Below are positions 23,291-48,701 of a stretch of DNA of 64,000 nt, one piece after another; positions within the stretch are counted from its first letter, which is position 1; every line of letters begins with the position of its first letter. The stretch is from positions 25,584 to 89,583 of the forward strand of contig CAMUYN010000003.1 of assembly GCA_947165005.1 (NCBI GenBank). The letters are read 5' to 3'. The position numbers were made by a program, and so were the translations under genes. The notes beneath the pieces were generated by a model, which was not told the origin of the DNA, did not search any database, and worked only from the letters and a program-made list of their open reading frames with translations. The stretch comes from an uncultured Bacillota bacterium (GTDB lineage Bacteria > Bacillota_I > Bacilli_A > RF39 > UBA660).

Positions 23291-25657
23291 TTATTTTAAA
23301 TATTCTTTTGCTTGTTTTAATAAATCACTTAAAGTATATATTGGTAATGAATAGTAAGTACCATTATTAGATACTATTACTTTATCTTTTTCAAGTTCAG
23401 TAAGTCCTCTTATATGACCTACTTTATTATAATTCTTATCTAATATATAAGCATCAGTTAAATTTCCAATATAAGTTCTTCCATATTTATCAGTACCATA
23501 GTAATGATCAGGTCTAAGAATATTCTCCACCATATTAAGTAACTTCTTTTCTTTAACGTTATATACTGCTAAGGAATTATCTACATAGCTAACAAATAAT
23601 AAATCTTTATTTTTACTATAGAACATACCAGATACTAAATTCTTATTCATAATATTTATTTTTTCTTTTAATTCATTAGCATCTTTTTCAGAAATAGTAT
23701 CAGTACTTACATACCCATATTCTTTTTTTACTTCTTTCATATCTTTACTAGTATTAGTAGTATAGTAAATAACTCTATTTTGATTTTCTGGTATTAATAA
23801 GTATCCTGATTCATTTTGAACTACTTTAGAATAATTAGTTAAATTAAATTGATATTGTCCTTTATAAATAACATTTTGTTTAGTATCCATACTTGCATAA
23901 TTAGCAGTACCATCTTTATTAATTGTTAAATATAAATTTCTATTAGTATATGAATATACTTCAAGTATATCACTAGATGTATCAAAATTATGTTTAACAT
24001 CTCCATTTGAAGCATCAAGTATATCTAATTTATTGCCATGAACTATAGCTATATCATTAACCCCTTCAGCATATGATCTAGTTATTATTTTTCCCCAAAT
24101 ACCATTTTCAGTTCTAGACCAATTTAAGTTATTATCAATATAGTTATAAGATGCTGCTAGTAAATTAAAATCAGATCCCATAGTTCTATTAAATAACATA
24201 TAAACATTATTATCTTTAGTAAACATATTACTAATATAACCAGCATTAAACTTAATACTGTTTATTTCTTTAGCACTTTCAGTATCTATGACATGTACTG
24301 TTATATATTGCTCTTTATCTACACTAAATTGATTTTCAATAGTACTTGCAAACAAATATTTACCATCTTCTGTATAAAATGATTGTCTTACTATATCATT
24401 ATCATATTTAATAGTACCTATTGTTTTATCATTAAGCAAATCATATATAGTTAAATTTTTATTATCTGCATAAGTTAAATATTTAGTTTTAAAATGGCCT
24501 CTTACAAATTGATAAGATGAATCTTCTTTCTTAATTTCTTTTAATTTATCACCATTTTTAGTAACAGTAATAATTACATTACCATCTTTATTTATATAAG
24601 AGAAATAATCTTCTCCGATAAAACTAAAATCATTTTCATCAAAAGTAAAACCATATATATCATTATAAGTTTTAATCTTTTTAAATGTTTTTGCATTCCA
24701 TAAAGTTAATTCCTCTGATTCATCATAAGTAGCTAAATAATTATTATCATAACTAACCTTTATAAAGTCTACTACACCCTTAGTTTTAATTTCATCATTA
24801 GCTTTAAAACTAGATCCTACATCATATACTCCAAGTGCTTCACTTAAAGCATATTCTGCATCAGTAGTATATGGCATTTTAACTTCATCAAACTTAGTTA
24901 ATGATTCATAAGCATATTTAATTGCATCATATCTACTATCATTTTTTAATGATGATATAGATTTTTCAGATAAAGTTGTTGCTTGATGATTTTTAAGTAT
25001 CTTTTGTTGACTATTAATTTTAATTAACATGATTGAAGAATAAAGTGCAAATAATAAGAATGCTCCTGCTGCTATTGTAGCAATAGTTAGTTTTCTTTTT
25101 TGTTCTTGCATTTTATGTCTTTGTTTTAAATCATCATAATCAAGTCCATACATTGGAGCTATTAATCTTAGTTTTTCACTCTTAATCTTACTTAATACTT
25201 CTTTTTTAGTTTCTCCTCTAACATCTGCAGCTAGTGGTTCTACCAAAGTCTTTCCGTCATCATCAACTAATACTTCTTCAGGGAAAGAATCACCTGGTTC
25301 ACCTTCAATTAATACACAGAAGATATTCTTTCTTCCTCTTAATTTTTTAAAAGTTTCTATTTCTTTTTTACACCACATAGAATCTTTTAATCTTGGAGAA
25401 CAAATAACTATTAAGTATTTAGTATTATGAAGTGCATCTACTATTGGATCTTCTAGATTACTAGAAAGTGGTAATTCATCTTGGTCTCTAAATACTCTTT
25501 TAATACTTCTTCCTTCAATACCTAATTGTTCTTTAATATTTTTAGGCAGTTCATAACTTTCTAATATCTTATGTAAGTTTTCTGCAACAAACTTATCTAA
25601 GTCACAATGTCTATAACTTATAAAAGCATCATATTTATATTCTTTTTTCTTTTCCAT
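23291..25657 (-). CDS. TIR-domain protein with one transmembrane helix and a C-terminal ~550-aa beta-propeller-like repeat domain
   Basis: N-terminal YDAFISYRHCD...VICSPRLKDSMWCKKEIE is a canonical TIR signature including the putative catalytic Glu. A hydrophobic segment LTIATIAAGAFLLFALYSSIMLI follows at ~aa 190-215. The C-terminal region has repeated Y/W/D/N-rich beta-strand patterns. A hairpin terminator lies at 23236-23275. Confidence 0.75.
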   Translation of the reverse strand: MEKKKEYKYDAFISYRHCDLDKFVAENLHKILESYELPKNIKEQLGIEGRSIKRVFRDQDELPLSSNLEDPIVDALHNTKYLIVICSPRLKDSMWCKKEIETFKKLRGRKNIFCVLIEGEPGDSFPEEVLVDDDGKTLVEPLAADVRGETKKEVLSKIKSEKLRLIAPMYGLDYDDLKQRHKMQEQKRKLTIATIAAGAFLLFALYSSIMLIKINSQQKILKNHQATTLSEKSISSLKNDSRYDAIKYAYESLTKFDEVKMPYTTDAEYALSEALGVYDVGSSFKANDEIKTKGVVDFIKVSYDNNYLATYDESEELTLWNAKTFKKIKTYNDIYGFTFDENDFSFIGEDYFSYINKDGNVIITVTKNGDKLKEIKKEDSSYQFVRGHFKTKYLTYADNKNLTIYDLLNDKTIGTIKYDNDIVRQSFYTEDGKYLFASTIENQFSVDKEQYITVHVIDTESAKEINSIKFNAGYISNMFTKDNNVYMLFNRTMGSDFNLLAASYNYIDNNLNWSRTENGIWGKIITRSYAEGVNDIAIVHGNKLDILDASNGDVKHNFDTSSDILEVYSYTNRNLYLTINKDGTANYASMDTKQNVIYKGQYQFNLTNYSKVVQNESGYLLIPENQNRVIYYTTNTSKDMKEVKKEYGYVSTDTISEKDANELKEKINIMNKNLVSGMFYSKNKDLLFVSYVDNSLAVYNVKEKKLLNMVENILRPDHYYGTDKYGRTYIGNLTDAYILDKNYNKVGHIRGLTELEKDKVIVSNNGTYYSLPIYTLSDLLKQAKEYLK

Positions 25658-33401: not shown

Positions 33402-34427
33402 ATGAAAAAAATATCAATAAATATGTTATCTTCAGCCGATAAAGTTAAAGGTCAAGGAGTTGGTTCTGCATACTTAGAACTAATAAAATTATTAAGAGAA
33501 GATGGAAAAGAATACTTTGATATATATATTAACAAAGGATCAAAATATGATATATTACATGCACATACAATAGATCCGATAAATTATATTAAATTAAAAT
33601 TTACTAAAGGGAAAAAAGTTATATATGTACACTTCTTACCAACAACATTAGATGGATCTATTAAACTTCCTAAATTATTTTTTAACATATTTAAATGGTA
33701 TGTAATCAAATTTTATAAACTAGCAGATAAATTAGTAGTAGTTAATCCAATATTTATCAAAGAAATGATAGAAAATGGATTAGATAAAGACAAAATAGTA
33801 TATATTCCTAACTTTGTATCAAAGGAAGAATTCTATAGTCTAGATAATAAAGAAAAAATAAATATAAGAAAAAAATATGGTTATACTGAAAAAGATTTCA
33901 TAGTTATGGGTGCTGGTCAAGTACAAACAAGAAAAGGTGTTATGGATTTTGTTGAAGTAGCAAAAAAAATGCCAGATATAAAATTTATCTGGGCTGGTGG
34001 ATTTAGTTTTGGAGCTATTACTGATGGACATGAAGAATTAAAAAAAGTTATGGATAATCCACCAGAAAACGTTAATTTTTTAGGAATAGTTGAAAGAAAA
34101 AATATGAATGAATTATATAATATGTCTAATGTATTATTTGTTCCTTCCTACAACGAATTATTCCCAATGACAATATTAGAAAGTACAAATTGTCATGTGC
34201 CTTTATTACTAAGAAATTTAGATTTATATGAAGACATATTATTTAAAAAATATTTAAAAGGAAATAATAATAATGATTTTATAAAAGAATTAACTAAATT
34301 AAAAAACGATAAAAAAATATATAAAGAACAAATCAAAAATTCTAAATATATTAGTGATTTCTATACTAAAGATCATGTTCTTGAAATGTGGATAGATTTT
34401 TATACAAGCATAATAAAAGAGGATTAA
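33402..34427 (+). CDS. Glycosyltransferase family 4 (GT-B fold; diacylglycerol glucosyltransferase-like)
   Basis: C-terminal half carries the GT4 nucleotide-binding region (...FVPSYNELFPMTILEST...). AGGTGA RBS before the ATG at 33402; the ORF track's earlier start at 33393 lacks an RBS. Confidence 0.65.
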   Translation: MKKISINMLSSADKVKGQGVGSAYLELIKLLREDGKEYFDIYINKGSKYDILHAHTIDPINYIKLKFTKGKKVIYVHFLPTTLDGSIKLPKLFFNIFKWYVIKFYKLADKLVVVNPIFIKEMIENGLDKDKIVYIPNFVSKEEFYSLDNKEKINIRKKYGYTEKDFIVMGAGQVQTRKGVMDFVEVAKKMPDIKFIWAGGFSFGAITDGHEELKKVMDNPPENVNFLGIVERKNMNELYNMSNVLFVPSYNELFPMTILESTNCHVPLLLRNLDLYEDILFKKYLKGNNNNDFIKELTKLKNDKKIYKEQIKNSKYISDFYTKDHVLEMWIDFYTSIIKED

Positions 34428-35566
34428 TTTAAATCCTCTTTCTTTTGTTCTTTTTCAGCCTTTTTTTCAGCTTCTTCTTTTTCTAGATAAGCTCTAGAAA
34501 TAGTTAATTTATATAATGTATCTTGTTTTAATATTATAAAATAACTCTTTTCATCAGGTATTACTTCATAATATATAATTGGTTCTTTTGTAAGTTCATT
34601 AACATCTAATAATTCTTCAACAGACATAACTCTAACTTTATTTTTATAAATAGATTCATCAATACTTGGTTGACTACTAGTTATTATTAGACGATCATAA
34701 TTCTTTAAAATACCATCTACTGTTCTTCTATAAATATCATTTTTCTTTCTAGTTAATAATAATACTAGCGCAAATAATATTACTGATATAGAACAAAGTA
34801 CTATACCTAGATAAAATAGACTCTTATGAGCAATAATATTTTCATCAATAGGAATATTAAAGTTATTTGCAAGTTCACTAGTATTAATAGAAATATCTAC
34901 TGTATTCTTTGTTAAAGGGATTGTCATTGTTAAAGTACTAGATTTAGCAGGTATTTCTTTACTTCCATAAGATGCTTTACGATAAATATTCATTGTTAAT
35001 ATTACACTACTATCTACATCTAATGAATACTTTTCTTTAAATGAACTAACATATGAATTATATTTTCCATAATCAATAGTTACGCTTTCATTAATATCAA
35101 ATCCACTATCTTTTCCTTCTTCTTTCTTAGTATCGATTAATACTTCGTCTTTAGAATAAAGAATCTTTGAACTATCATTCTTATCTGTTACTAATGTTTT
35201 ACAATCTACTGAATATTCATATTCATAATCTACTATATTAGAAAATTTATTTTCATAGATAAAATTTACATCAAATGTATTTATTAAACTAGCTATATAG
35301 TTATTTGCTTCACTATCGCCTTTTCTTAAGAATTTGTTAGAGTAAAAATCATTATCTTTTAAATGTACAGTATAATCTACAGTACCATTTTCACTATTAG
35401 CAATTGCAGTAATCTTTCCAATAGATGCAAAGATTAATACTCCACCTAATAATAATAAAACTAATAGTCCTATGAATATATAGTTTTTAGCCCTTTTTTT
35501 ACTTGACAAATCTTTTATATAATATAATTTGCCTTTATCCTTATTTTCATATTTTATTTCTTTCAT
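34424..35566 (-). CDS. Bitopic membrane protein, possible accessory or anchor protein of the TasA-like fibre locus
   Basis: TM helix at aa ~30-50, a second hydrophobic segment near aa 250-275, and a charged C-terminal coiled-coil tail. Overlaps the sipW-like gene by 4 nt. Confidence 0.45.
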   Translation of the reverse strand: MKEIKYENKDKGKLYYIKDLSSKKRAKNYIFIGLLVLLLLGGVLIFASIGKITAIANSENGTVDYTVHLKDNDFYSNKFLRKGDSEANNYIASLINTFDVNFIYENKFSNIVDYEYEYSVDCKTLVTDKNDSSKILYSKDEVLIDTKKEEGKDSGFDINESVTIDYGKYNSYVSSFKEKYSLDVDSSVILTMNIYRKASYGSKEIPAKSSTLTMTIPLTKNTVDISINTSELANNFNIPIDENIIAHKSLFYLGIVLCSISVILFALVLLLTRKKNDIYRRTVDGILKNYDRLIITSSQPSIDESIYKNKVRVMSVEELLDVNELTKEPIIYYEVIPDEKSYFIILKQDTLYKLTISRAYLEKEEAEKKAEKEQKKEDLN

Positions 35567-36717
35567 TTTAATTTACTCCCTTCAACAAATTCATATAACC
35601 ATATAGATGGTAATCCAACTAAAGGTATTTTATGATTAGTAATACCAACTATATTTCCTTTTGTTACTACCCAATTATCTTCATCTTTGTTATTATCACC
35701 TTTTGTTTTATAAATAGTATCTCCATTCTTATCTTTAGATATTTGTGATACCCTGTGGACAATAATCTTATTTTGCATTCTAAATACTAATATTGAACCA
35801 ACTTTAATTTGCTTCAATTCATCCTCATTTAATTTCTTTACTATAACTACATCTCCAACAAACAATTCCTTTTCCATTGATCCAGAACCAATTGTTAAGA
35901 AGAAATATTTAAATATTCCACTAGTTAATGCTATTAAAACAAGTAGGAATGCTATTAATGTTATACTTACTATTCTATTCGTTTGCTTCTTCATAAAAGT
36001 ATCAACTTTGATATTTTCTCTGAGTAATTTTCTAGTAACAAAATAAATAATAACCGGATATACTAAGGCAATTACTGCTTGTAAATATTTATTAAAATCT
36101 GGAATAATTGGAATAATGAATACTAATAGTGATGTTATGCATAAATAAATAATATTTGCAAGTATACCAAATCTTTTCATCCAATAAGTTAATAATAAAT
36201 TCTTAGATATACTTGGAATCAATATTAAACATATTGCTTCTAATGCTACTCTAGAATTAGTTATATCATATTTAAATATATTTGCTGAAGTATCAATTAA
36301 TACAAATACTATAAAAGTTAAAACAAAGAATACTTTTCTCTTTTCACCTTTTATTAAGAATTCATGCCTTAATACTTCTCCAGTAGTTATTATCATAGCA
36401 AATGGCAAAATATTCATTAATAATGTCATTAAATTTAAACTATATCCACTTTTTAAGAAACCAATAAAAATACCTGCAACATATATAAATATTTCATATA
36501 TCAAACTAAATATAATTGCAACTAAGATTCCATCTTTTTTAAATCTATGTCTATCTTCTTCATAACCTAGGACTAATGTGGAAATAAAAAACATAACTAT
36601 TATTGCCATAGCAATAATATAGTTATCCGCTTCTAAGAATAATAAATTTACTAAAAACAACACTATCATGAATATTTCTAAAATCAAAAGTTTTTTTTCT
36701 GATTTTTTGAATTTCAT
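35563..36717 (-). CDS. sipW: SipW-type (archaeal/ER-type) signal peptidase I fused to an N-terminal ~270-aa polytopic membrane domain
   Basis: C-terminal TIGSGSMEKELFVGDVVIVKK...ILVFRMQNKIIVHRVSQ...YKTKGDNNKDED matches the SGSMEP...GD...HRV...TKGDNN signature of SipW-class peptidases. Preceded by ~8 predicted TM helices. Confidence 0.7.
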   Translation of the reverse strand: MKFKKSEKKLLILEIFMIVLFLVNLLFLEADNYIIAMAIIVMFFISTLVLGYEEDRHRFKKDGILVAIIFSLIYEIFIYVAGIFIGFLKSGYSLNLMTLLMNILPFAMIITTGEVLRHEFLIKGEKRKVFFVLTFIVFVLIDTSANIFKYDITNSRVALEAICLILIPSISKNLLLTYWMKRFGILANIIYLCITSLLVFIIPIIPDFNKYLQAVIALVYPVIIYFVTRKLLRENIKVDTFMKKQTNRIVSITLIAFLLVLIALTSGIFKYFFLTIGSGSMEKELFVGDVVIVKKLNEDELKQIKVGSILVFRMQNKIIVHRVSQISKDKNGDTIYKTKGDNNKDEDNWVVTKGNIVGITNHKIPLVGLPSIWLYEFVEGSKLK

Positions 36718-36823
36718 ATGCTTTCTCCCTTATTCTATCCTATTTATAATTATATAATATATAATTATTAAAAGTCAATGAAATAAGTCTTATTTACAAA
36801 AAAATTAAGGTTTTTCCTTAATT

Positions 36824-37444
36824 TTATTGTTGTGTATATGTAATTGAAATTGTATCTGGATTAACAGTTACAGGTGCATTTGGTAATTGTGATGCTGTCA
36901 TGTTCTTATCTAATACTGCTACTACCCAAACTTGTTTACTTGCACCAGCAGCTAATGTATCATCAGCAGCAAGTCTAGTTGTTCCTGCTGCGTTAGTGTA
37001 AATACCATATGTAATTTTTCCACATACAGTAGTTTCTGATGATCCACCCTTTGTACAAGAAATATCTGGTACATTGATACTTGTTATTTTAGCAGCATAA
37101 CTACCTGCATTACGGATATAGAATGTATATGTTATTCTATCTCCTGGTGTTTTAAATGTTCCATCCCAAGTAAAACTATCAGTTTTTAATGTTCCTGTTC
37201 CTGTAGCTGTTACAGTTAAACTGTTATCATTTGATAATGTTGGTGTTATAGATACACCTGATGTTCCTGCTGCATTTCCTCCATTTGTTGATGTAAAAAA
37301 TATGTTCCAATTTGATGCTTGTACTTCCGCAGTACCGTTAATATTTAATGTTGCACTAAATGTAGCAAATGCTACTCCTATACTTACTACAGCAAGCACA
37401 AGTGCAATTACTATAGAAATTGTTGTTCCTTTTCTTCTACCCAT
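36824..37444 (-). CDS. TasA/camelysin-like secreted protein, SipW-cognate signal peptide class (paralog 1)
   Basis: N-terminus MGRRKGTTISIVIALVLAVVSIGVAFATFSATLNINGTAEV matches the SipW-cognate pattern (GxAFAxFS). Conserved WNIFF, TPGDRITYTFYIRNAG, C...C and YGIYT blocks are shared with the four other paralogs. Confidence 0.55.
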   Translation of the reverse strand: MGRRKGTTISIVIALVLAVVSIGVAFATFSATLNINGTAEVQASNWNIFFTSTNGGNAAGTSGVSITPTLSNDNSLTVTATGTGTLKTDSFTWDGTFKTPGDRITYTFYIRNAGSYAAKITSINVPDISCTKGGSSETTVCGKITYGIYTNAAGTTRLAADDTLAAGASKQVWVVAVLDKNMTASQLPNAPVTVNPDTISITYTQQ

Positions 37445-37458
37445 ATATTTCTCCTATA

Positions 37459-38082
37459 TTAATTTTGATCGTAATAAACTGAAACTGCTGGTGCAGTTAC
37501 TGTTACTGCTTGAGTTGGTAAATCTGATCCATTTGTTGCAAAGTTATCTAGTAACATAACTTTAACCCAATATTGTGCAGAACTATTAGAATTTAATGGG
37601 TCGTCAGCAGTTACTGCTTGAGTACATGCTTCATTCTTATATATACCATATGTAACATGTGAATTACAGAATGTCTGTGCACTTGTTGTATCAGCATATG
37701 TACATGTTACATTTGGTGATAATGTTGAACGAACTTTTGCATTAAATGATCCTGTATTTCTTGCATAGAAAGTATAAATTACATAATCTCCTGGCGCAGT
37801 TAATGTTGCCGCCCATGAAAAATTATCTGCAGATAAACTTGCTAATGTTGATGATGCAGATCCATGTTCTGTGATATTTGCTGCTGGTAATGTCCCTGCT
37901 GATGATGGTTTTGACCCATTTGATGCACTTGCAAAGAATATATTCCAGCTAGATTGCTGTACTGTTGCAGTACCGTTAATATTTAACTGTGTACTAAATG
38001 CCGCAAACGCTACCCCCAAACTTATTACCGCTAATATTAGTGCTACTACTATAGCTACTATTGTTCCTCTCTTTTTTTCCAT
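37459..38082 (-). CDS. TasA/camelysin-like secreted protein (paralog 2)
   Basis: Same signal-peptide class and conserved blocks (TAPGDYVIYTFYARNTG). Own promoter TTGACA-17-TATATT at ~38095-38125. Confidence 0.55.
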   Translation of the reverse strand: MEKKRGTIVAIVVALILAVISLGVAFAAFSTQLNINGTATVQQSSWNIFFASASNGSKPSSAGTLPAANITEHGSASSTLASLSADNFSWAATLTAPGDYVIYTFYARNTGSFNAKVRSTLSPNVTCTYADTTSAQTFCNSHVTYGIYKNEACTQAVTADDPLNSNSSAQYWVKVMLLDNFATNGSDLPTQAVTVTAPAVSVYYDQN

Positions 38083-38193
38083 ATTATATTTCCTCCTATT
38101 TTAAATATACTCGCACTACTTATTATTGTCAACCAAAAATGTTTATAAAGTGTAAACCACAAAAAAAAAGCATCATAAATGATGCTTTTATAA

Positions 38194-38847
38194 TTAATTT
38201 TGACCAAATGATACAGTTGCTGATATTTGATTAGTTTTTACTGTTTCTGTTGGTAAATCTGAACCGTCTTGAGCCCAGTTTGTATCAAGCCATGCTATTA
38301 AATAATAAGCTTTAGTTGTTCCTGCAGGAATAGTTTGATCTACTGCTACAGCACTAGAACCAGCAGTATCATTATATAATCCATAATGAATATGTCCACA
38401 TACTCTTGTTTCAGCCTCTTGTTGTGCAGTACCTGTTTTTATTGTACATGTTGGAATTGGCATATTAACATCAGTTACTTTTGCGTTAAAAGTACCACCA
38501 TTTTTTACATATACAGTATACATTACTCTATCACCAGGTGTTCTAAAAATAGCATCCCAAGTAAGTGTAGTTGCAACCATACTACCAGTTGCAGTAACAG
38601 TTGGTGTTACATTAGGATCAATATTTGATATTTGAATATTTCCTGATGGAATAGTTGTACTTTCTGATGGTTTTTCCCCATCATTAGCTGTTGTAAAATA
38701 CATATCCCATTTTATAGTATCTACTGTTGCAGTACCATTGATATTTAACGTTCCTGAAAATACAGCAAATGCTACTCCTAAACTTATTATAGATAATACT
38801 ACTGTTATAATAATCGCAATAACTTGTCTCTTTTTTTCTTTTTCCAT
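38194..38847 (-). CDS. TasA/camelysin-like secreted protein (paralog 3)
   Basis: Same family (TPGDRVMYTVYVKNGG). Own promoter TTGACT-17-TATATT and terminator hairpin at ~38150-38180. Confidence 0.55.
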   Translation of the reverse strand: MEKEKKRQVIAIIITVVLSIISLGVAFAVFSGTLNINGTATVDTIKWDMYFTTANDGEKPSESTTIPSGNIQISNIDPNVTPTVTATGSMVATTLTWDAIFRTPGDRVMYTVYVKNGGTFNAKVTDVNMPIPTCTIKTGTAQQEAETRVCGHIHYGLYNDTAGSSAVAVDQTIPAGTTKAYYLIAWLDTNWAQDGSDLPTETVKTNQISATVSFGQN

Positions 38848-38958
38848 ATATTTCTCCTATTCTTCTATAATATAAATATACTTTTATCATAAAAAAAAGT
38901 CAATATTTATTAGAAAGAAAAAACATCGTTTACACGATGTTTAAATCATATTAATATA

Positions 38959-39657
38959 TTAGTTGTTGCTAACAGCACTACTAGATTGTGTATATGCAAG
39001 TGTTGTTGTAATTGTTGCTGTTGTAACATCTACTGGTGCTAAACTTTGACCATCATTTCCACCATAACTATTATCTAACCAAGCAACTAGATAATATTGA
39101 TTAGATGAATGAGCATTTAAAGATGTACCTGTTTGTAATGGTGTTGTTCCTGCTGAATCTGTGTATATTCCATAATGGATATGTGCACATACTGATTCTT
39201 CAGCGCCAGTTTGTCCACCTTCAGCTGTACAAGTGAAATTAGTTACTCCTACTTGAGTAAGACCTGAAGTTCCAGTTGAATCTAAAGTGGCATTAAAATC
39301 ACCATCATTAACAACATAGAATGCATAAGTCACTCTATCACCTGCTGTTTTAAATGAAGCACTCCATTCAATTGTAGTTGCTGATGTAATATTTCCAGTT
39401 CCACTTGCAGTAGTTGTAAATCCAGCCCCATTTGATGGTGTAATAGAAGCAATAGGTGTACTTGATGATGGTTTACTACTAGATTGTGAACTATATGCTG
39501 AATTTGAGAAATAAATATCCCATTTAGTTGCTTGAACTGTTGCAGTACCATTGATATTTAATGTTGTACTGAATGCAGCGAATGCAACACCTAAACTGAT
39601 TACAGCTATTACTAATGCAGCTACTACTGCTATAGTTACTCCTCTCTTTTTTTCCAT
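38959..39657 (-). CDS. TasA/camelysin-like secreted protein (paralog 4)
   Basis: Start trimmed to the Met preceded by GGAGGA (MEKKRGVTIAVVAALVIAVISLGVAFAAFSTT). Promoter TTGACA-17-TATACT at ~39690-39720; terminator hairpin at ~38905-38935. Confidence 0.55.
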   Translation of the reverse strand: MEKKRGVTIAVVAALVIAVISLGVAFAAFSTTLNINGTATVQATKWDIYFSNSAYSSQSSSKPSSSTPIASITPSNGAGFTTTASGTGNITSATTIEWSASFKTAGDRVTYAFYVVNDGDFNATLDSTGTSGLTQVGVTNFTCTAEGGQTGAEESVCAHIHYGIYTDSAGTTPLQTGTSLNAHSSNQYYLVAWLDNSYGGNDGQSLAPVDVTTATITTTLAYTQSSSAVSNN

Positions 39658-39731
39658 ATTTTTACTTCCTCCTCTATTATAAAGTATAGAACAATATAGA
39701 TATATTGTCAATTATTTTAAATAAAAAAATA

Positions 39732-40103
39732 TTATATTTTTTTATTTAAAATATGTATAGTTAATAATAATACTATAGTTGCTGATAATGATATTAAAAA
39801 GTAGTTAGTATTAGTCTTAATCATTTTCTTTTTTTCTTGTTTATCTAGCAAATAATTTTCTTTACATATCTTCTTTATATCATCATCATATTCTTTTTTA
39901 CCCTCTTGATCAGTACCTTCATATTCTAATTTATCTAAAGTGCATATTTCTTTAGAATAATCATCATATGATAATATTTCAGGGCCATTTATCATATTAA
40001 TACCGGTTGATATTACAACAATAATAGATATAATTGCTCCTACTATAAATATTGAATTTACAATTTTTAAAACTAAATCTTTTTCTTTTGCAAATAATTT
40101 CAT
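39732..40103 (-). CDS. Small two-TM membrane protein (123 aa)
   Basis: ORF with N- and C-terminal hydrophobic helices; between tyrS and the TasA-like array. Confidence 0.4.
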   Translation of the reverse strand: MKLFAKEKDLVLKIVNSIFIVGAIISIIVVISTGINMINGPEILSYDDYSKEICTLDKLEYEGTDQEGKKEYDDDIKKICKENYLLDKQEKKKMIKTNTNYFLISLSATIVLLLTIHILNKKI

Positions 40104-40199: not shown

Positions 40200-41417
40200 C
40201 TAGAAAATAACTTTCATAAATACTTTTTTGCCTTTTTGTAAGATTATATATCCATCTTGTAAATCTTCTTCAGTTATTACTTTATCAATATCATTTAATT
40301 TTTCTAAATTTAAAGAAAGTCCATTTTGATCAATTAATCTTCTTCCTTCTGATTTAGATGGAACTAATCCTACTTTTACGAGTAAATCTAGTATATTAAT
40401 ACCTAAATCTTCTTTTGATAAATTTATTGTTTCTATATCTTTAGGTAATCCAGTTAATGAAACAGACAAGAAACTTTCTTCTGCACGTTTAGTATCTTCT
40501 TCTCCATAAAATATTTTAGTTATTTCTCTAGCAGCAAAAAGTTTAGCTTCTCTTGGATTATTTTTAATATCTAATTTAGCTATTTCATCAAGTGGTACTC
40601 TTGTATTATTAACCAATAATAATTCTATCATTTCATCAGGTTGATTCATTATTTCTTCAAACATTTTATTTGCTCCAGTACCTAAGAATACTCCTGTTCC
40701 TCTTGATTTAGACATTAATGTTCCATCTATTGGATTTTCCATTAAATTATTAGCTACTACAAATTTATCTTTATCTCTATATTTCTTTAATAAATCTCTT
40801 CCTACTAAAGCATTGAATATTTGATCTGTTCCACACATTTCAACATCTATATCAAGTGCAACACTATCATATCCTTGTAACATTGGATAAATAAATTCAT
40901 GCATAAATATTGGTTTATTCTCTTCCATCCTCTTTTGGAACATATCTCTTACTAATAATTGCCCTACAGTGGCATGTGATAGTAAATCTATCATATCCTC
41001 TGAAGTTAATTTATCCATCCATTCACTGTTAAATACTACATGTGTAGGATTTTCTTTATCTTCAGTATTGATAAGAGGTTTAATACTTTCTATCCAATGT
41101 TCCGCATTTTTTTTTGCTTCTTCTCTTGTTAATCTAGCTCTTGCAGATGTTCTATCTGTTGGATCACCAATACAAGCAGTAAAATCTCCAAATAATATAT
41201 ACACTTCATGTCCTAATTTTCTAAATTCATCCAACAACATAAAGTTTTTTGCATGGCTTAAATGTAATGATGTTCCTGTAGGATCTGCACCTATATAGAA
41301 TTTTAATTTTCTATCTAATAATGCTTCCTTAAATTCTTCTCTTGATGGAAGTATTTGTCTTACTATTCCCCTATCAAGTATTTCATCAATTCTTTTTGAT
41401 TTTTCTTCTCTTGTCAT
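40200..41417 (-). CDS. tyrS: Tyrosyl-tRNA synthetase paralog (divergent; HLSH and LMSKS variants of the class I motifs; C-terminal S4 domain)
   Basis: GADPTGTSLHLSHAKNF, CIGDPTDRTS, LMSKSRGTGVFL and a C-terminal S4-like RRLIDQNGLSLN; 405 aa. Preceded by a T-box leader with a UAC specifier. Confidence 0.75.
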   Translation of the reverse strand: MTREEKSKRIDEILDRGIVRQILPSREEFKEALLDRKLKFYIGADPTGTSLHLSHAKNFMLLDEFRKLGHEVYILFGDFTACIGDPTDRTSARARLTREEAKKNAEHWIESIKPLINTEDKENPTHVVFNSEWMDKLTSEDMIDLLSHATVGQLLVRDMFQKRMEENKPIFMHEFIYPMLQGYDSVALDIDVEMCGTDQIFNALVGRDLLKKYRDKDKFVVANNLMENPIDGTLMSKSRGTGVFLGTGANKMFEEIMNQPDEMIELLLVNNTRVPLDEIAKLDIKNNPREAKLFAAREITKIFYGEEDTKRAEESFLSVSLTGLPKDIETINLSKEDLGINILDLLVKVGLVPSKSEGRRLIDQNGLSLNLEKLNDIDKVITEEDLQDGYIILQKGKKVFMKVIF

Positions 41418-41419
41418 AT

Positions 41420-41640
41420 TTCCTCCTTAAACAAAAAAAGTTCCTATAATATAAGGACGAATTACCGCGGTACCACCTTATTTCATAGAAACTATGCACT
41501 CTAATTATAACGGAATTACCGATTAAATTCAGAATATGTAATTCATTCTTAAAAATACACTAGTTTTCACCAACCACTAGTTCTCTAATAATATATTTTA
41601 AAAACTACTAATTATTCATCAACATTTAATTACATTCTAA
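41420..41640 (-). promoter_or_regulatory. T-box riboswitch leader (Tyr specifier UAC) with promoter, upstream of the tyrS paralog
   Basis: -10 TTATAAT at rc 41640-41646. Stem I contains AGAGA and GGUGAAA-like elements; specifier loop GAAUUACAUA. Conserved T-box sequence AAUUAGAGUGCAUAG...AAGGUGGUACCGCGG; terminator/antiterminator and U-tract before GGAGG-ATG. Confidence 0.8.
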
Positions 41641-41679
41641 TTATAACACATATTTTATAAAAATAAACAAAAAAAAGTT

Positions 41680-42975
41680 TTAATTATTATTCTTAACTAA
41701 AACTTTCATGTAATTCTTTTTTCCTTTTCTTACTACAAATCCACCGTCTGTAATATCAGAAGGAGTAACCATATTTTGTTCTTGTTGCATTCTAACGTTG
41801 TTTAAATATATACCCCCTTGTTGCAATAATCTTCTAACTTCTGATTTTGATTTAGCCATTTTTATTAATACCATTAATTCTTCAATAGGAATACCTTCTC
41901 CCATAACATCTGCACTTATTCCACATTGAGGCATGTTTTCTGAATTACCAGCATTTGAGAATACTTCTTCACTTGCTTTCTTTACTTTTAAAGCTTCTTC
42001 TTCTCCATGTACTAATTTTGTTACTTCAAAAGCCATTATTTTTTTAGCATTTCTTATATCTTCAGTACACATTCTCTTTATATCTTCCATTTCATAATTA
42101 CTAAAGAATGATAATAATCTTTCTACGTCTTCATCATATGAATTCATAAACATTTGATAGAAATCATAAACAGTTGTTTTTTCTCTTGAAACCCATAATG
42201 TTCCACTAGCTGTTTTACCCATTTTTTCTCCATCTGCCTTTATTAATAACGGACATGTTAATGTTTGTAATTGTCTATCTTCTAAACCATTTGCAAAATC
42301 CATTTTTCTAGCCAATTCTACACCTGCTATCATATTTGCCCATTGGTCAGAACCACCAACTTCTAATACGCACCCATATTTTTCATTTAAATATACAAAG
42401 TCATAAGCTTGCATTAACATATATCCCATTTCTAAGAATGTTAATCCACCAGATTCTAATCTGTTTTTATAGCAATCAGTAGCTAACATTTTATTAACAT
42501 TAAAATGTACTCCAACTTTTCTCATAAAATCAACATATGATTCTGGATTAATCCAATCTGCGTTATCTAATATTAGTGCAGGATTATCTCCATCAACATC
42601 TACGAATCTCTTAACTAATTCTTTCACTTCTGCTTTATTGTATGCTACTTGTTCTTTAGTTAGCATCTTTCTCATATCTCTTTTTCCAGTTGGATCACCA
42701 ATTAAAGCTGTAGCCCCTCCGATTACAATTATTGGATGATGTCCCTTCTCTTGTAATCTTCTTACCATTGTAAGCGCAAAGAAATGTCCTATATGTAAAC
42801 TATCCGCTGTTGGATCTATACCTATATAAAACACTTTTGGTTCACTATCGTTTAACATTTCTTCAATTACTTTTTCATTTGTAGCTTGATATACATATCC
42901 TCTTTCTCTTAGTATATCAAAAGGTTTTTTTTCCATATTAACTCCCCTCTCAAATAACATTGCATATATTAACAT
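41680..42975 (-). CDS. tyrS: Tyrosyl-tRNA synthetase (canonical)
   Basis: IDPTADSLHIGH, GGATALIGDPTGK, KMGKT and a C-terminal S4 domain (RRLLQQGGIYLNNVRM); 431 aa (about 416 aa from the better start MEKKPFD). Confidence 0.9.
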   Translation of the reverse strand: MLIYAMLFERGVNMEKKPFDILRERGYVYQATNEKVIEEMLNDSEPKVFYIGIDPTADSLHIGHFFALTMVRRLQEKGHHPIIVIGGATALIGDPTGKRDMRKMLTKEQVAYNKAEVKELVKRFVDVDGDNPALILDNADWINPESYVDFMRKVGVHFNVNKMLATDCYKNRLESGGLTFLEMGYMLMQAYDFVYLNEKYGCVLEVGGSDQWANMIAGVELARKMDFANGLEDRQLQTLTCPLLIKADGEKMGKTASGTLWVSREKTTVYDFYQMFMNSYDEDVERLLSFFSNYEMEDIKRMCTEDIRNAKKIMAFEVTKLVHGEEEALKVKKASEEVFSNAGNSENMPQCGISADVMGEGIPIEELMVLIKMAKSKSEVRRLLQQGGIYLNNVRMQQEQNMVTPSDITDGGFVVRKGKKNYMKVLVKNNN

Positions 42976-42990
42976 TTTTATATCAAAATG

Positions 42991-43758
42991 TCAATTTTTT
43001 TGATATTTAACTATATTAAAAACTACCTTATATAAATCTTCATAACTTGTTTGAATGTCAGATAATGAAATTAATTCTTCTGGTGTATTATCATCTATTA
43101 TTGCAATTTTTTTTCCTTTCTTTAATCCAAACATTTCTATATCATTATAATCATTACCAAAAACATAAATATCATCATTAATAAAAATATTATCTATTAT
43201 GAATTCTATTGCAGTTCTTTTATTTATACCCTTTGAATTAATTATAATATAATCTTCGGACTTAATAGCATTAATATTATTATTATTACATTTATCTATA
43301 AAAGCATTAACACATTCATTACTTTTAAATTTAATTGTGATTTGACAAATATCATTTACCAATACTTCATTATAAAAATCTTTAGAATTACTAATTCTTT
43401 TTGACACATAAAGTAAAGTTTTATCTCCATACTGTATATAATTATTTGAATTAGATGGATTAAATAATATATATTCTACTTCCTTATAATCGATATATTT
43501 TAATATTTTTTTTTCATTTTGAGTTAAAAATCTTTGATAAATTATTTCATTATTTTTTGTTACTATTTTTGAACCATTCTCGATAATAATTGGTAATTCA
43601 TTTAAATAATTATTTACGATTTCTAAACTTCTTAAATATCCTCTGCCTGTACAAAAAATAAAAGGAATCTTATTTTTTTGTAAAAAAAGTAATAATTTAT
43701 CATTACTTTTTTTATTTTTATAAATTACACCATCTATATCAAAAAACATTAATTTCAT
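42991..43758 (-). CDS. HAD-IIB (Cof-type) phosphatase
   Basis: FFDIDGVI motif I, GNDYNDIEMF motif IV, cap domain between. Confidence 0.75.
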   Translation of the reverse strand: MKLMFFDIDGVIYKNKKSNDKLLLFLQKNKIPFIFCTGRGYLRSLEIVNNYLNELPIIIENGSKIVTKNNEIIYQRFLTQNEKKILKYIDYKEVEYILFNPSNSNNYIQYGDKTLLYVSKRISNSKDFYNEVLVNDICQITIKFKSNECVNAFIDKCNNNNINAIKSEDYIIINSKGINKRTAIEFIIDNIFINDDIYVFGNDYNDIEMFGLKKGKKIAIIDDNTPEELISLSDIQTSYEDLYKVVFNIVKYQKN

Positions 43759-44771
43759 TTTTTGACCTCAAATACTGTTTTAATATTATCCTTAATATTT
43801 TCGTAATTTTTTATATATTCTACTGATGACAAAAAATCAATTCTATAAGAAATCAAATCGTTAACTTGAATGTCTTTTTTTTCTAATAAATCTAATGCCT
43901 TCTTAAAGTCATTATGTATATTACAGTATGAGTTTATTCCTTTTAAAGTGCCTTGCTTATAAAATAGTGTCCTAATATTAATATTTGCAAGATAATTAAA
44001 TGCATATACTCCATAACAAAGAATTAAACAATTATTATTGCCTACTTCTATTGAAGTGTTTAAAGTGTCAGATTGTTTCCCTCCAACTGTTTCTAATATA
44101 ACATCAAATTTTATATCACATTTTTTTATTTCATCAAACAGCAAATAATTAATACCTAAATTCTTAATCTTATCTCTATGTTTTGCAAACAATATAATAT
44201 TCTTATCACTATACATTGATTTTAATATTCTATAACAAATTATTCCTAAAGGCCCATCTCCTATAACTGCTATATTTTCTATATTATTTTTTTTGATTTC
44301 TTTTATATAATTAATTCCATGTAATGCTACTGCAATATCATCAATAAATATTGCATCTTCATAGTTTATGTTATCTGATAACTTATAAACACAATTTTTA
44401 GGAACATAAACTACTTCCGAATAACCACCATCTATATCTCTTCCTACAATTTTAATATCATTACATAAACTAAAGCTTTCACATGGAGCATGTTCAAGAG
44501 CAACATCAAAAGGATTTACTACTACTTTATCTCCAATACTAAAACCTTCGCAATTCTCTCCAAAATTGCTTATAACTCCCATAATTTCATGTCCTAATAT
44601 ATTTGTATTAATATAGTTTTTATTTGGAGTTTGTTTTAAAAACTTTAGAATATCACTACTACACAAGCCCAGATATCTAGTTTCTATTTCTATTTCATCA
44701 TTTTTACATTTTCTCTTTTCAAATGTTTCAAAAAAGAAATCATTTTTTTCTTTATAAAAAATCCTTTGCAT
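43755..44771 (-). CDS. Zinc-dependent medium-chain dehydrogenase/reductase (sorbitol/threonine dehydrogenase-like)
   Basis: GLCSSD...GHEIMG catalytic zinc motif, VIGDGPLG Rossmann motif; 338 aa. Confidence 0.75.
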   Translation of the reverse strand: MQRIFYKEKNDFFFETFEKRKCKNDEIEIETRYLGLCSSDILKFLKQTPNKNYINTNILGHEIMGVISNFGENCEGFSIGDKVVVNPFDVALEHAPCESFSLCNDIKIVGRDIDGGYSEVVYVPKNCVYKLSDNINYEDAIFIDDIAVALHGINYIKEIKKNNIENIAVIGDGPLGIICYRILKSMYSDKNIILFAKHRDKIKNLGINYLLFDEIKKCDIKFDVILETVGGKQSDTLNTSIEVGNNNCLILCYGVYAFNYLANINIRTLFYKQGTLKGINSYCNIHNDFKKALDLLEKKDIQVNDLISYRIDFLSSVEYIKNYENIKDNIKTVFEVKK

Positions 44772-45906
44772 GCTTTTCTCCTAATAATTTATAAATTTTG
44801 TTACTATTTCCGCCTGTATGTTTTATATATTTGATTAACATATCTAATCCTTGCCCTGTTTTAATTGCTTCTTTTGCCTTTACATAGCCTTCTTTATAAT
44901 TTGTAACCATTCTAGACAAATACAATATATTAGCACAATTAATACATACTATATCTTCATGTGCTTCTAAGCCATTACCTGCTAAAACGCTTAAGATATA
45001 TTTTATGTTTTCCTCTTTAGTTTTCCCTTGTGCTATATCTCTAGAAGTATATTTTGGCAAACCCAGTTCTTTTATCGGATTAAAAATTAATAAATTACCA
45101 TTATTTATTCCGTCTTTTGTACCAATTATCTTTGTCTCACCATATACTCCCATTTCATCAATAAAATGAATTCCATCATCTGTGCTAGAAACAACTAAAA
45201 CATTTTGGTTGCCAAATTTCTTTAAAACATCTAATGATAATTCTACATTCGGATGTGCTAAACCATATAAAAGTGAATCTGTTTTTACTGGACAAATTAA
45301 TGCTGCCAATCCAAAACTTAAAACATGTGGAGCAAAAAAATTACCACCATATATTTTGTCAAATTTAGGAATAATATCCTCTATGCAAAAGAATGCAAAA
45401 CCACAGTCATTTAATATATCTATACTCTCATCTAATGTAATATCTTTATTAGCGCCTACTATTTCCATAAAATCAGCGGACCCAGTAACTGACGAAGTTG
45501 ATTTAGATCCTGGTTTAACAACATACGCCCCCATACTTGAAGCAAGTAAAGCACTTGCTGTTGAAATATTAATTGTTTTAACCCCTTTTTTACCACTACC
45601 TGCTAACGTTACTATTTCATGATTATCTATTTGTATTTTTTTTCTTTCAATAGGATTATAATTATCCAAACTAAATGCTTCTTTTAGTAAAGCTACTACT
45701 TCATCAGATGTTGGATTCTTAGTCATAATTGCTGTCAAAAAGGATCCTAACATAGTATTTCTAATATTATCATTTTTAACATTTAAAATCTCAGAGAATG
45801 CAGACCTAAGTAAATCTATATCATATTTTGAATTTACATTTAATCTATATAATAATTCTTTTAAATTTTTATATTCATTCATTATCCCACGCCCCACATA
45901 TATCAA
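44752..45906 (-). CDS. TrpD-family (glycosyltransferase family 3) phosphoribosyltransferase-like protein
   Basis: LAGSGKKGVKTINISTASALLASSMGAYVVKPGSKSTSSVTGSADFMEIVG aligns with the GTGGDG..NIST.....AA.G..V.KHGNR..SS..GSAD.LE motif block of anthranilate phosphoribosyltransferase. Confidence 0.65.
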   Translation of the reverse strand: MIYVGRGIMNEYKNLKELLYRLNVNSKYDIDLLRSAFSEILNVKNDNIRNTMLGSFLTAIMTKNPTSDEVVALLKEAFSLDNYNPIERKKIQIDNHEIVTLAGSGKKGVKTINISTASALLASSMGAYVVKPGSKSTSSVTGSADFMEIVGANKDITLDESIDILNDCGFAFFCIEDIIPKFDKIYGGNFFAPHVLSFGLAALICPVKTDSLLYGLAHPNVELSLDVLKKFGNQNVLVVSSTDDGIHFIDEMGVYGETKIIGTKDGINNGNLLIFNPIKELGLPKYTSRDIAQGKTKEENIKYILSVLAGNGLEAHEDIVCINCANILYLSRMVTNYKEGYVKAKEAIKTGQGLDMLIKYIKHTGGNSNKIYKLLGEKHAKDFL

Positions 45907-46897
45907 TTAATACTTTTGCATATTTTTTCTTGCTTTCTAGCCATTTATCACCCTTTTCTTCACAAATTTTATATAATTCTTCTAATTCTTCTGGAGAATA
46001 ATATGATACTGCACTCATCATTTGAAAAATTGTTGAATCCTCTGGTTTTTCATATTCATCTTTACTATTAACAACAAGATCATATATCTTATCAGGAGTC
46101 ATGTCCACAGAAATAGATGAATCAGGAATACTCTTACTCATCTTTGGATAACCATTTAACCCCTTTATTACTCTAGAATATAATGCTCCGATTGTCATAT
46201 CAAGATTCATGCGTTCTACAACTTTTTGGGCAATTCTAACATATAAATGTTCTTCTAAACCTAACATAACTAAAACGTTTTCATAATTATCTACATATCC
46301 CAAATGGATGAAATCTGCAACCATCAATAAAATTGCTTGTTTAACTTTAAAGTCAATTCCCTTATATATATTTTTGCTCTTATATAATTCGGATAAATCT
46401 TCTTCCGCTTCTAAAAAGTCTTCATCTGTTAAGCAATTTGAAATCAAATAAGCTGTTTTTAATATTTCAGGATGATCAATTTGTGTTCTTAATACTCCTT
46501 TTGTTTCATCAAAGCCTAACTTTTTTATAAACTTAGTATATTTATCAGCACGTTCTTTTAGCACTTCTAAAGACTGATTTCTAGCATTATAGGAATCTAA
46601 ATCTCCTAAAACAAACTGAACTTCAAATCCTGCTTTTTGTAAAAAGATTGCTCTTAATATTTGAGATAATGTTCCCATATGTGGTGTTCCACTCAAACCT
46701 ATTCCAGTAGTAATAATCTGTTTTTTGTCATTAACACCTTTAACAAATTTTTCTGCCTTATAATGGCATAACCATTTTTCCTTCATAACATCTCTACTGA
46801 TATTACTTAAACTAAAATCAATAGGTTTAAAATCCATTGCATTATAGCCATACTTGTTAATAACACTTCTGTAATATTCATCATCAAATTTTATCAT
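45875..46897 (-). CDS. Class Ic aminoacyl-tRNA-synthetase-like paralog (TrpRS/TyrRS fold) with degenerate HIGH region (GTPHMGTL), intact KMSKS and a ~55-aa N-terminal extension
   Basis: TTGIGLSGTPHMGTLSQ (a TrpRS-style HIGH region), GDLDSY, KMSKSIPDS; 340 aa. Start overlaps the previous gene, indicating an operon. Confidence 0.6.
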   Translation of the reverse strand: MIKFDDEYYRSVINKYGYNAMDFKPIDFSLSNISRDVMKEKWLCHYKAEKFVKGVNDKKQIITTGIGLSGTPHMGTLSQILRAIFLQKAGFEVQFVLGDLDSYNARNQSLEVLKERADKYTKFIKKLGFDETKGVLRTQIDHPEILKTAYLISNCLTDEDFLEAEEDLSELYKSKNIYKGIDFKVKQAILLMVADFIHLGYVDNYENVLVMLGLEEHLYVRIAQKVVERMNLDMTIGALYSRVIKGLNGYPKMSKSIPDSSISVDMTPDKIYDLVVNSKDEYEKPEDSTIFQMMSAVSYYSPEELEELYKICEEKGDKWLESKKKYAKVLIDICGAWDNE

Positions 46898-46959
46898 TTT
46901 TCCCTCCTTATTTATTGCTAAATTATTTACACTTAATATAGTTGCTTTTTTTTAATTTA

Positions 46960-47110
46960 TAGCAACAAAAAAACGGTGCTTAAACACTATATGTTAAAGT
47001 TACCGTTTTCATTTTTATTGGGGCAAAAAAGCATATTAAATTGTATTTAATATTTAAATTTTCAAAAACTATTGTTCTTTCTACCAATACTTTTATATTA
47101 TTCATAAATC
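46960..47110 (-). promoter_or_regulatory. Leader region of the aaRS-paralog operon with 8-bp hairpin, U-tract and possible 41-codon leader ORF (candidate attenuator)
   Basis: AAAACGGU-23nt-UACCGUUUU followed by U-rich sequence, about 90 nt upstream of the ATG. Small ORF MNNIKVLVERTIVFENLNIKYNLICFFAPIKMKTVTLTYSV with GAGGGG RBS ends inside the hairpin. No T-box consensus found. Confidence 0.3.
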
Positions 47111-47250
47111 TCACCCCTCATAAATAATTTAATTTATTTTATCTCCATATATATCAATTGTCAATAACATTCAAAGAATATATATAAATTTTTTTCAGTT
47201 GCAAAAAAATATAAAAAGTTGTATAATAAGCACTTAAAAGGAGAAATTAT

Positions 47251-47682
47251 ATGAATACTAATGAAAAGAACAAAAAAATAAATATTATTATATTACCACC
47301 ATATATGAGAAAAATTGATAATAATAAATTAATACTTTTATACACAAAAATAAAACCTATTATATCAATTCAAGAAAAAAAATATAAGTTAAATACTTTC
47401 ACATTGGAGCAATTATTAAAAAATTATAATTGGAATAGTGAAGAAAACAAGACAGAATTAATTGATAGTAACAGCATTGAAATAATCACCGATTTCCTAT
47501 GTTTACATACACACAAAGAGCAAGCATCTTTAGAAGAAATATTATCACAAATCCCAGATGATATAACTAATTTTGCTAACGCTTTTGAAGTGATTGAAGC
47601 ACCTGAAAAAAGAGAGAACTTGATTGTACATGCTAAAGGATTACATTTATCAAAAATCAGAATATATAAAATCAATGAATAA
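47251..47682 (+). CDS. Hypothetical protein (143 aa)
   Basis: Strong promoter TTGCAA-17-TATAAT and AAAGGAG RBS. Followed by a bidirectional terminator (GAAGC-UUAU-GCUUC) at 47690-47718. Confidence 0.55.
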   Translation: MNTNEKNKKINIIILPPYMRKIDNNKLILLYTKIKPIISIQEKKYKLNTFTLEQLLKNYNWNSEENKTELIDSNSIEIITDFLCLHTHKEQASLEEILSQIPDDITNFANAFEVIEAPEKRENLIVHAKGLHLSKIRIYKINE

Positions 47683-47698
47683 TATTAAAAAAAGAAGC

Positions 47699-48701
<1,003 letters not shown>

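Follow-up and report, generated by a model that had tools for sequence, protein, structure and literature searches.

In this study, a minus-strand locus (34424-39711) that probably encodes a TasA-superfamily, AbpX-like extracellular donor-strand fibre system was found in DNA of an uncultured, low-GC gut bacterium of Bacilli/Mollicutes-like type. The DNA is a 64-kb stretch of contig CAMUYN010000003.1, referred to below as the window; its G+C content is about 26% and its genes lie mostly on the minus strand, as do all genes, promoter-like sites and hairpins given here with window coordinates. The locus consists of six genes in the order P4, P3, P2, P1, a fused signal peptidase gene and a DUF5305 gene. 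A preliminary description made from the sequence alone had proposed a fibre-type locus, and this was borne out in outline: predicted secreted beta-sandwich subunits with a SipW/TasA-like cleavage region are encoded together with a dedicated archaeal-type peptidase. The same description had suggested a spore appendage as one possibility; nothing was found that ties the locus to spores.

Subunit paralogs and their conserved N-terminal segment

Open reading frame (ORF) analysis and alignment identified five subunit paralogs. Four are arranged in tandem, namely P4 (38959..39657, 232 aa), P3 (38194..38847, 217 aa), P2 (37459..38082, 207 aa) and P1 (36824..37444, 206 aa; 14 bp after P2), and the fifth, P5 (48755..49807, 350 aa), stands apart from the array. 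In pairwise alignment they were 38–44% identical. All five shared the invariant block SxGVAFAxFSxxLNINGTA and also kept a PGD..Y..Y..N.G block, one Cys and one Tyr, and the DNA-level repeats D1/D2 concurred with the protein paralogy, in agreement with the common N-terminal and internal blocks reported earlier. Of the earlier size range of 206–250 aa, the tandem genes retained 206–232 aa. The 250-aa form of P4 was an overcall, because what had been read as a TTG start at 39711 is the P4 promoter's −35 hexamer; the true start is the ATG at 39657, with a GGAGGA ribosome-binding site upstream.

A word-indexed search gave 86 unnamed relatives of the subunits, and relatives in the genome collection were at most 36% identical. 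In an exhaustive profile search against clusters at 50% identity, 6,381 representative clusters matched the subunit profile at E<=1e-3, mostly with lengths of 190–240 aa. Host metagenome-assembled genomes (MAGs) among the reference genomes were uncultured gut 'Bacilli' and Mycoplasma/Tenericutes-labelled or Erysipelotrichaceae-labelled genomes, often with several loci each; one host was Candidatus Faecisoma, placed in Mycoplasmatota by NCBI. Giant proteins among the representative matches carried 14–45 repeats of the core domain, and three giant metagenomic proteins (P0207, P0208 and P0215; 4,658–6,401 aa) had 34–45 tandem copies of it (profile positions about 100–165); the fold therefore also serves non-fibre repeat proteins. 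The largest array seen was in a rabbit-gut MAG (L026:4126-10536), with eight subunit paralogs in tandem and no peptidase on the contig fragment.

Conservation was counted in an alignment of 104 diverse family members. Position 29 was F, L or M and position 30 was S. Just past the predicted cut at A27/A28, the segment L33-x-I35-x-G37-x-A39-x-V41 was more conserved than the fold core, with L33 in 104/104, I35 in 102/104 and G37 in 100/104 members; A/G39 and V41 were also kept, and polar variable residues alternated with these positions. In the AlphaFold2 (AF2) monomer of P2, the paralog chosen for modelling (predicted local distance difference test, pLDDT, 90.2), a helix (3–30) was followed by a low-confidence coil (31–47), which sits outside the sandwich, and then by a beta-sandwich of about ten strands. 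One conserved strand face placed directly after the cleavage site has the look of a donor strand, and the alternating segment and the low-confidence coil would fit such a strand. The P4 product shows the predicted order, in which a signal peptide cut after AFA (A27/A28) is followed by the conserved donor-strand-like segment and the beta-sandwich. In the proposed mechanism, the five paralogs would be made as precursors carrying a Sec-type signal peptide; cleavage would release the N-terminal segment, which would insert into the beta-sandwich of the next subunit to form a non-covalent fibre.

The N-terminal helix might instead be retained, so that the paralogs would be type II membrane-anchored surface proteins and the adjoining peptidase would act on other substrates. 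The long continuous helix 3–30 of the AF2 model and an h-region unusually conserved for a signal peptide would suit such an arrangement, but it does not account for the near-invariant small residues at −1/−3 (A27 in 103/104; A or G at position 25), which fit the −1/−3 rule, or for the agreement of the cleavage region with the experimentally processed sites of TasA and AbpX. In about 40 genomes, moreover, the peptidase gene is directly preceded by subunit genes. Retention of the helix is considered improbable, and the cleaved, donor-strand reading is followed below.

Remote link to AbpX and the monomeric alternative

AbpX is a solved donor-strand fibre protein of the TasA superfamily, and its sequence from Pyrodictium abyssi is given in a preprint (bioRxiv 10.64898/2026.01.04.697558). 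When the 104-member family was compared with the AbpX family by hhalign, the two profiles aligned over the full length (Prob 95.9%, E 6.4e-9, 154 columns), and a match was retained after the signal peptide and donor strand had been removed (P 5.7e-6). The AbpX search gave only five close Pyrodictium-type sequences, so that the AbpX profile is shallow. At the cleavage site and donor strand, GVAFA/AFSTTLNINGTA of the window family lined up with GLTYA/QWSETLSLSATI of AbpX, and the pattern of buried positions matched the AbpX donor strand position for position. The segment sits where TasA has its donor strand (residues 28–38) and where AbpX has W2–I12. No BLAST- or HMMER-level similarity to AbpX was found. 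Homology to a solved member is thus detectable at the profile–profile level, and the link of the family to the TasA superfamily, as judged from sequence, is a remote one that runs through AbpX. The earlier term TasA/camelysin-like does not hold at the level of the Pfam family, to which the paralogs do not belong.

Several results weigh against a fibre system of this kind. None of the five paralogs matched Peptidase_M73/TasA (PF12389; gathering score 22.5 bits) even at E<=1, with Bacillus subtilis TasA, the positive control, scoring 129 bits. The TIGR04088 model (SipW-cognate signal peptide) likewise gave no match at E<=1, and the assignment of the signal peptides to the SipW-cognate class was not upheld. 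Matches of the five to other curated families were limited to sub-threshold ones to DUF11/DUF7507. DUF7507 and DUF11 were matched by the 104 relatives as often as Peptidase_M73, and with single sequences the family profile aligned weakly (hhalign, AbpX P 0.007; TasA P 0.01, confined to the PGD motif). Fainter signals in the family agree with the link to known fibres: among the 104 relatives, 10 gave sub-threshold Peptidase_M73 matches (best E 7e-4), and single members touched the BsaA, TIGR04088 (E 0.002), TIGR04089 and TasA models. AbpX itself gave E 0.07 against Peptidase_M73, no better than family members. A profile search of PDB sequences gave just seven matches, all sub-threshold, and these included AbpX (E 0.39) and TasA (E 0.5 and E 0.92).

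Foldseek with the P2 model returned nothing at E<=1e-3, the TasA fibre ranking 15th with E 0.04, and fold searches, including the 5OF1/8AUR jellyroll comparison, gave weak matches to donor-strand pilins and TasA. On structure alone, P2 would be called a generic beta-sandwich, and non-polymerising domains of the DUF11/CARDB-like type also typically combine a beta-sandwich with a PGD..N.G motif. Two AbpX hallmarks, acidity at mature position 4 and an Asp/Glu content of about 15%, were absent from the paralogs, in which mature position 4 is Thr, Gln, Gly or Ala, Asp plus Glu amount to 5.6–9.6% and the isoelectric point (pI) is 4.05–5.15. The AbpX-like clade is defined by an aromatic mature position 2, an acidic position 4, a pI of about 4 and about 15% Asp/Glu; lacking the acidic position and the high Asp/Glu content, which are calcium-binding traits, the window subunits are therefore not in the AbpX-like calcium-responsive clade. 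Strand donation itself is suggested by a sequence pattern and by remote homology.

The main rival explanation is that the paralogs are secreted or surface-located monomeric coat or adhesin proteins of the DUF11/CARDB-like type, which share a leader and a dedicated peptidase, do not polymerise and, through their copies, diversify antigen or function in the gut. It would draw on the recurring sub-threshold matches to DUF7507, DUF11 and HYDIN-like Ig domains, on the giant proteins with 14–45 core-domain repeats, on the many paralog loci per MAG, including the eight-copy tandem array, and on the lack of any significant structural match to fibre subunits. It would leave unexplained the near-invariant alternating L-x-I-x-G-x-A-x-V segment, the full-length collinear match to the AbpX profile and the strict linkage to a peptidase–DUF5305 pair that is found elsewhere with donor-strand fibres. 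We regard this explanation as possible but unlikely, and the donor-strand fibre remains the preferred reading.

The fused signal peptidase and its DUF5305 partner

The peptidase gene (35563..36717, 384 aa) encodes an N-terminal eight-helix domain (36019..36717, residues 1–233), followed by an anchor helix (residues 240–265) and the catalytic domain of an archaeal/endoplasmic reticulum (ER)-type signal peptidase I (SPase I) (35563..36000). It passed the TIGR02228 model (sigpep_I_arch) with 75.1 bits (cutoff 51.85) and scored below the Bacillus SipW equivalog NF046067 (67.2 bits against a cutoff of 190). The earlier designation as a SipW/archaeal-type signal peptidase was thus correct in its archaeal part and failed in its SipW part. 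The alignment with human SEC11A/C spanned SGSME, HRV and KGDNN. S280, H321, D341 and D347 align to the SEC11 catalytic motifs and did not vary among 40 homologs, the most distant of which had 34% identity; the catalytic set of Ser, His and Asp is intact.

In the AF2 model of the peptidase (pLDDT 78.8), eight helices (5–233), the anchor helix and a beta-rich catalytic domain were seen, in accordance with the N-terminal fusion of about eight transmembrane (TM) segments noted before. The full-length fusion was kept in hundreds of metagenomic proteins of 375–395 aa and is therefore not an assembly artefact. The lysine-rich N-terminus suggests an N-in, C-out topology, which fits a catalytic domain outside the cell.

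The 8-TM N-terminal domain has a CPBP (CAAX protease and bacteriocin-processing) fold. No match to PF02517 was found among 40 members at E<=10, and a search of the domain alone against PDB sequences gave nothing relevant. No His was conserved in residues 1–245 of the 40 homologs, the catalytic motifs EExxxR, FxxxH and HxxxN were not seen, and the conserved residues were limited to E114-x-x-R117, F138-x-x-x-D142 and N173. Because no His is conserved, the domain is most likely a non-catalytic scaffold, which would bind the signal-anchor or a partner protein. SpdC is such a non-catalytic scaffold of the CPBP fold. The window domain differs from those of SpdC/LyrA and Rce1 in having no PF02517 sequence match and in being fused to a signal peptidase domain. 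The CPBP fold of such peptidases is not mentioned in the AbpX preprint and was not turned up by a full-text literature search, and the cited literature makes no mention of a CPBP-fold domain fused to a signal peptidase.

The fold brings to mind a bacteriocin- or toxin-type locus, in which precursor paralogs with a conserved leader would be accompanied by a CPBP-like membrane protein for processing or immunity. Tandem paralogs with a highly conserved leader are indeed present, but the encoded beta-sandwich proteins, about 180 aa long and remotely homologous to fibre subunits, are not peptides, the CPBP-like domain has neither a conserved His nor a PF02517 match, and no transporter or immunity genes were linked to the locus, either among the window ORFs or in the related loci. 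Such a locus is considered highly improbable.

As a part of the fibre system, the adjoining membrane-embedded SPase I would cut the precursors after Ala27 (AFA/AFS), probably together with the DUF5305 two-TM protein. Phe occupies P2' (mature position 2) in 5/5 window copies. A dedicated enzyme is probably required, because this bulky hydrophobic residue two past the cut is the same trait that makes TasA a poor substrate of ordinary signal peptidase. According to one study (PMC10269814), an aromatic P2' residue blocks LepB of Escherichia coli, giving poor cleavage, which explains the dependence of TasA on SipW. Processing by the adjacent peptidase appears well supported by gene context and by analogy with the genetics of haloarchaeal Tat-fimbriae (Tafi), in which deletion of the peptidase TafD abolishes both processing and fibres (PMC11821415, PMC12337348).

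In P. abyssi, abpX is followed by an SPase I gene whose 380-aa product has the layout of the window peptidase. The two proteins matched in hhalign with Prob 99.3%, and their catalytic domains were 36% identical. The N-terminal domains by themselves were not significantly similar (hhalign, P 0.45), which adds to the points against an AbpX-like system listed above.

The DUF5305 gene (34424..35566, 380 aa) overlaps the peptidase stop by 4 nt at its start. Its product matched PF17231 (E 5.9e-16, 59 bits against a cutoff of 29), and hydropathy indicated two TM segments (26–57 and 244–275) flanking an extracytoplasmic domain. It had been taken for a bitopic coiled-coil protein serving as a TapA-like anchor; the two TM segments and the DUF5305 domain point to a peptidase accessory instead, presumably of the TafG type. 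DUF5305 corresponds to TafG in Tafi and, in AbpX-like loci, to what is termed the 'SPase I accessory'; it is at times fused to the peptidase, and the peptidase–DUF5305 pair accompanies the donor-strand fibres of both systems (PMC11821415, PMC12337348, bioRxiv 10.64898/2026.01.04.697558).

Synteny was examined in 80 related loci from different MAGs. About 40 of them had one to five small subunit genes followed by the fused peptidase and then DUF5305, the four-gene array of the window being at the high end of this range, and the two peptidase domains were always found together. A subunit-like protein of 650–1328 aa was sometimes encoded next after DUF5305. P5, with a subunit-like N-terminal part of 210 aa and a Cys-rich C-terminal extension of roughly 135 aa, may be the counterpart of these large proteins and is a candidate tip or anchor subunit. 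In two of the related loci, L025 and L057, two fused peptidase copies were present about 5 kb apart with a subunit gene before each copy, which indicates duplicated modules, possibly with separate substrate sets.

A more far-reaching idea is that the fused CPBP-fold domain and signal peptidase work with DUF5305 as a self-contained machine for assembly at the membrane, a 'peptidase-usher', in which either the signal-anchor or the nascent donor strand would be held by the pseudo-protease and cleavage would be coupled directly to strand insertion into the growing fibre. We consider this doubtful at present. If true, it would be a previously unrecognised route of pilus assembly, and an unannotated family numbering over 6,000 clusters would use it, in Mollicutes-like gut bacteria that are uncultured and may lack a wall.

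Transcription units, neighbouring genes and relation to known systems

Promoter-like sites close to consensus were located upstream of P4 (39683..39711, TTGACA-17-TATACT), P3 (38875..38903, TTGACT-17-TATATT), P2-P1 (38104..38132, TTGACA-17-TATATT), the peptidase–DUF5305 pair (36749..36778, TTGACT-18-TATAAT) and P5 (49831..49859, TTTACA-17-TATAAT). Terminator-like hairpins followed P4 (38921..38942), P3 (38166..38189) and P5 (48707..48729); after P1 there was an AT-rich hairpin with a U-run (36798..36825; −7.7 kcal/mol, z −2.8), likely the P2-P1 terminator, and after the DUF5305 gene a bidirectional terminator-like hairpin (34415..34442) common to a convergent GT4 gene. Overall, 53 promoter-like matches were found against 49.6 expected in shuffled sequence, showing no excess; in such AT-rich DNA, therefore, only their intergenic placement is informative. 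The 14-bp gap between P2 and P1 contained neither a promoter nor a terminator. Since P1 follows P2 without signals between them and DUF5305 overlaps the peptidase by 4 nt, the likely transcription units, as predicted, are [P4], [P3], [P2-P1], [peptidase-DUF5305] and [P5]. The proposal that each paralog has its own promoter and terminator accordingly stands for three of the four tandem genes. The surroundings of the subunit promoters showed no inverted repeats of the sort expected for invertible promoters.

Upstream of P4 lies ORF123 (39732-40103, 123 aa), which has two TM segments and no family match, and the stretch from the end of this ORF to the P4 promoter contains a perfect 41-bp AT-only palindrome (39713-39753; 20-nt arms, 1-nt centre), which might act as a weak terminator or as an operator. 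Directly upstream of P5, ORF449 (49884-51233) encodes a polytopic membrane protein of 449 aa, also without a family match. ORF123 and ORF449 were considered as parts of the locus and rejected because neither is conserved in related loci.

Paralogs of class I aminoacyl-tRNA synthetases are unusually concentrated at 40200-48292, which separates the fibre locus from P5. They comprise two full tyrosyl-tRNA synthetase-type genes (405 and 431 aa), one of them behind a T-box leader (41450-41631), as well as a divergent tRNA-synt_1b protein of 340 aa and a fragment of 197 aa. Interleaved with them are Glycos_transf_3 (anthranilate phosphoribosyltransferase-like), alcohol-dehydrogenase-like and HAD hydrolase genes. 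Together these genes might form a small biosynthetic cluster employing an aminoacyl-tRNA synthetase paralog. Elsewhere in the window, the gene at 23291-25657 encodes a 788-aa protein in which WD40/beta-propeller repeats come after an N-terminal TIR domain (TIR_2 / ThsB-like); it could function in defence or signalling. An ORF of more than 5,174 aa (2-15523, start at 15523) runs off the left end of the window. Its product has an N-terminal signal/TM segment, many Listeria-Bacteroides (Flg_new) repeats and weaker SpaA-like and CarboxypepD_reg matches, and it looks like a giant surface protein. Because the top representative match of the subunit profile was a 4,825-aa repeat protein, this ORF was tested for subunit-like repeats; it matched neither the subunit profile nor that protein.

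The composition of the fibre locus had been called unusual, a claim that no longer holds, since a polytopic SPase I, DUF5305 and several subunits have already been described together for AbpX-like and Tafi loci (bioRxiv 10.64898/2026.01.04.697558; PMC11821415). AbpX-like loci occur in archaea, Bacillota and Chloroflexota, and a ten-TM SPase I with a DUF5305 accessory has been noted in them, including those of Bacillota (bioRxiv 10.64898/2026.01.04.697558, January 2026). The window locus shares with AbpX loci a subunit of about 200 aa, a predicted cut at [YF]-A/x-[WF]-S, a donor-strand-like segment with the same buried positions, the PG..F..N.G motif, a conserved Cys, the profile–profile match (rounded, Prob 96%, E 6e-9), an adjoining polytopic SPase I of about 380 aa, a DUF5305 accessory and several subunit-like genes. 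It differs in the missing calcium-coordination signature (no acidic position 4; 5.6–9.6% against about 15% Asp plus Glu), in its lineage of gut Mollicutes-like Bacilli and in that no SLH, LPXTG or sortase genes were seen adjoining it.

Tafi (TafA/TafE pilins, TafD and TafG) are similar in that a dedicated S26 peptidase and DUF5305 are encoded with several donor-strand subunits. Their signals are Tat signals, whereas the window signal is of the Sec type; TafD has 4 TM segments, an N-terminal catalytic domain and an extra C-terminal domain, in contrast to the N-terminal eight-helix CPBP-fold domain of the window peptidase; and a TafB-type regulator is not present at the window locus. With tapA-sipW-tasA of B. 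subtilis (PMC9674648) the locus has in common an archaeal/ER-type signal peptidase encoded with its presumed substrates, a cut at aromatic-Ala/Ala-Phe, a donor strand formed by the first ~11 mature residues in TasA and predicted at this place in the window subunits, and the PGD..F..N.G motif. By eye, the cleavage regions compare as AFA/AFS in the window, TWA/AFN in TasA and TYA/QWS in AbpX. On the other hand, the window paralogs miss both Peptidase_M73 and TIGR04088 and have no significant fold match, SipW has about 190 aa against 384 aa for the window peptidase, and the locus has a DUF5305 protein and no TapA homolog.

Systems of this kind have thus been described before, in 2025 for Tafi and in January 2026 in the AbpX preprint. 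New are the large subunit family, for which there is no curated model, and the lineage that hosts it, together with the paralog array under several promoters and the CPBP fold in the membrane domain of the peptidase. TasA-superfamily donor-strand fibres are emerging as a matrix-building principle of bacteria and archaea, and a large family without a Pfam or NCBIfam model would join them. The CPBP-fold pseudo-enzyme domain offers a handle on substrate recognition and on a possible coupling of cleavage and assembly, and the subunit family provides a definite candidate for the structures by which never-cultured gut organisms adhere or build biofilms.

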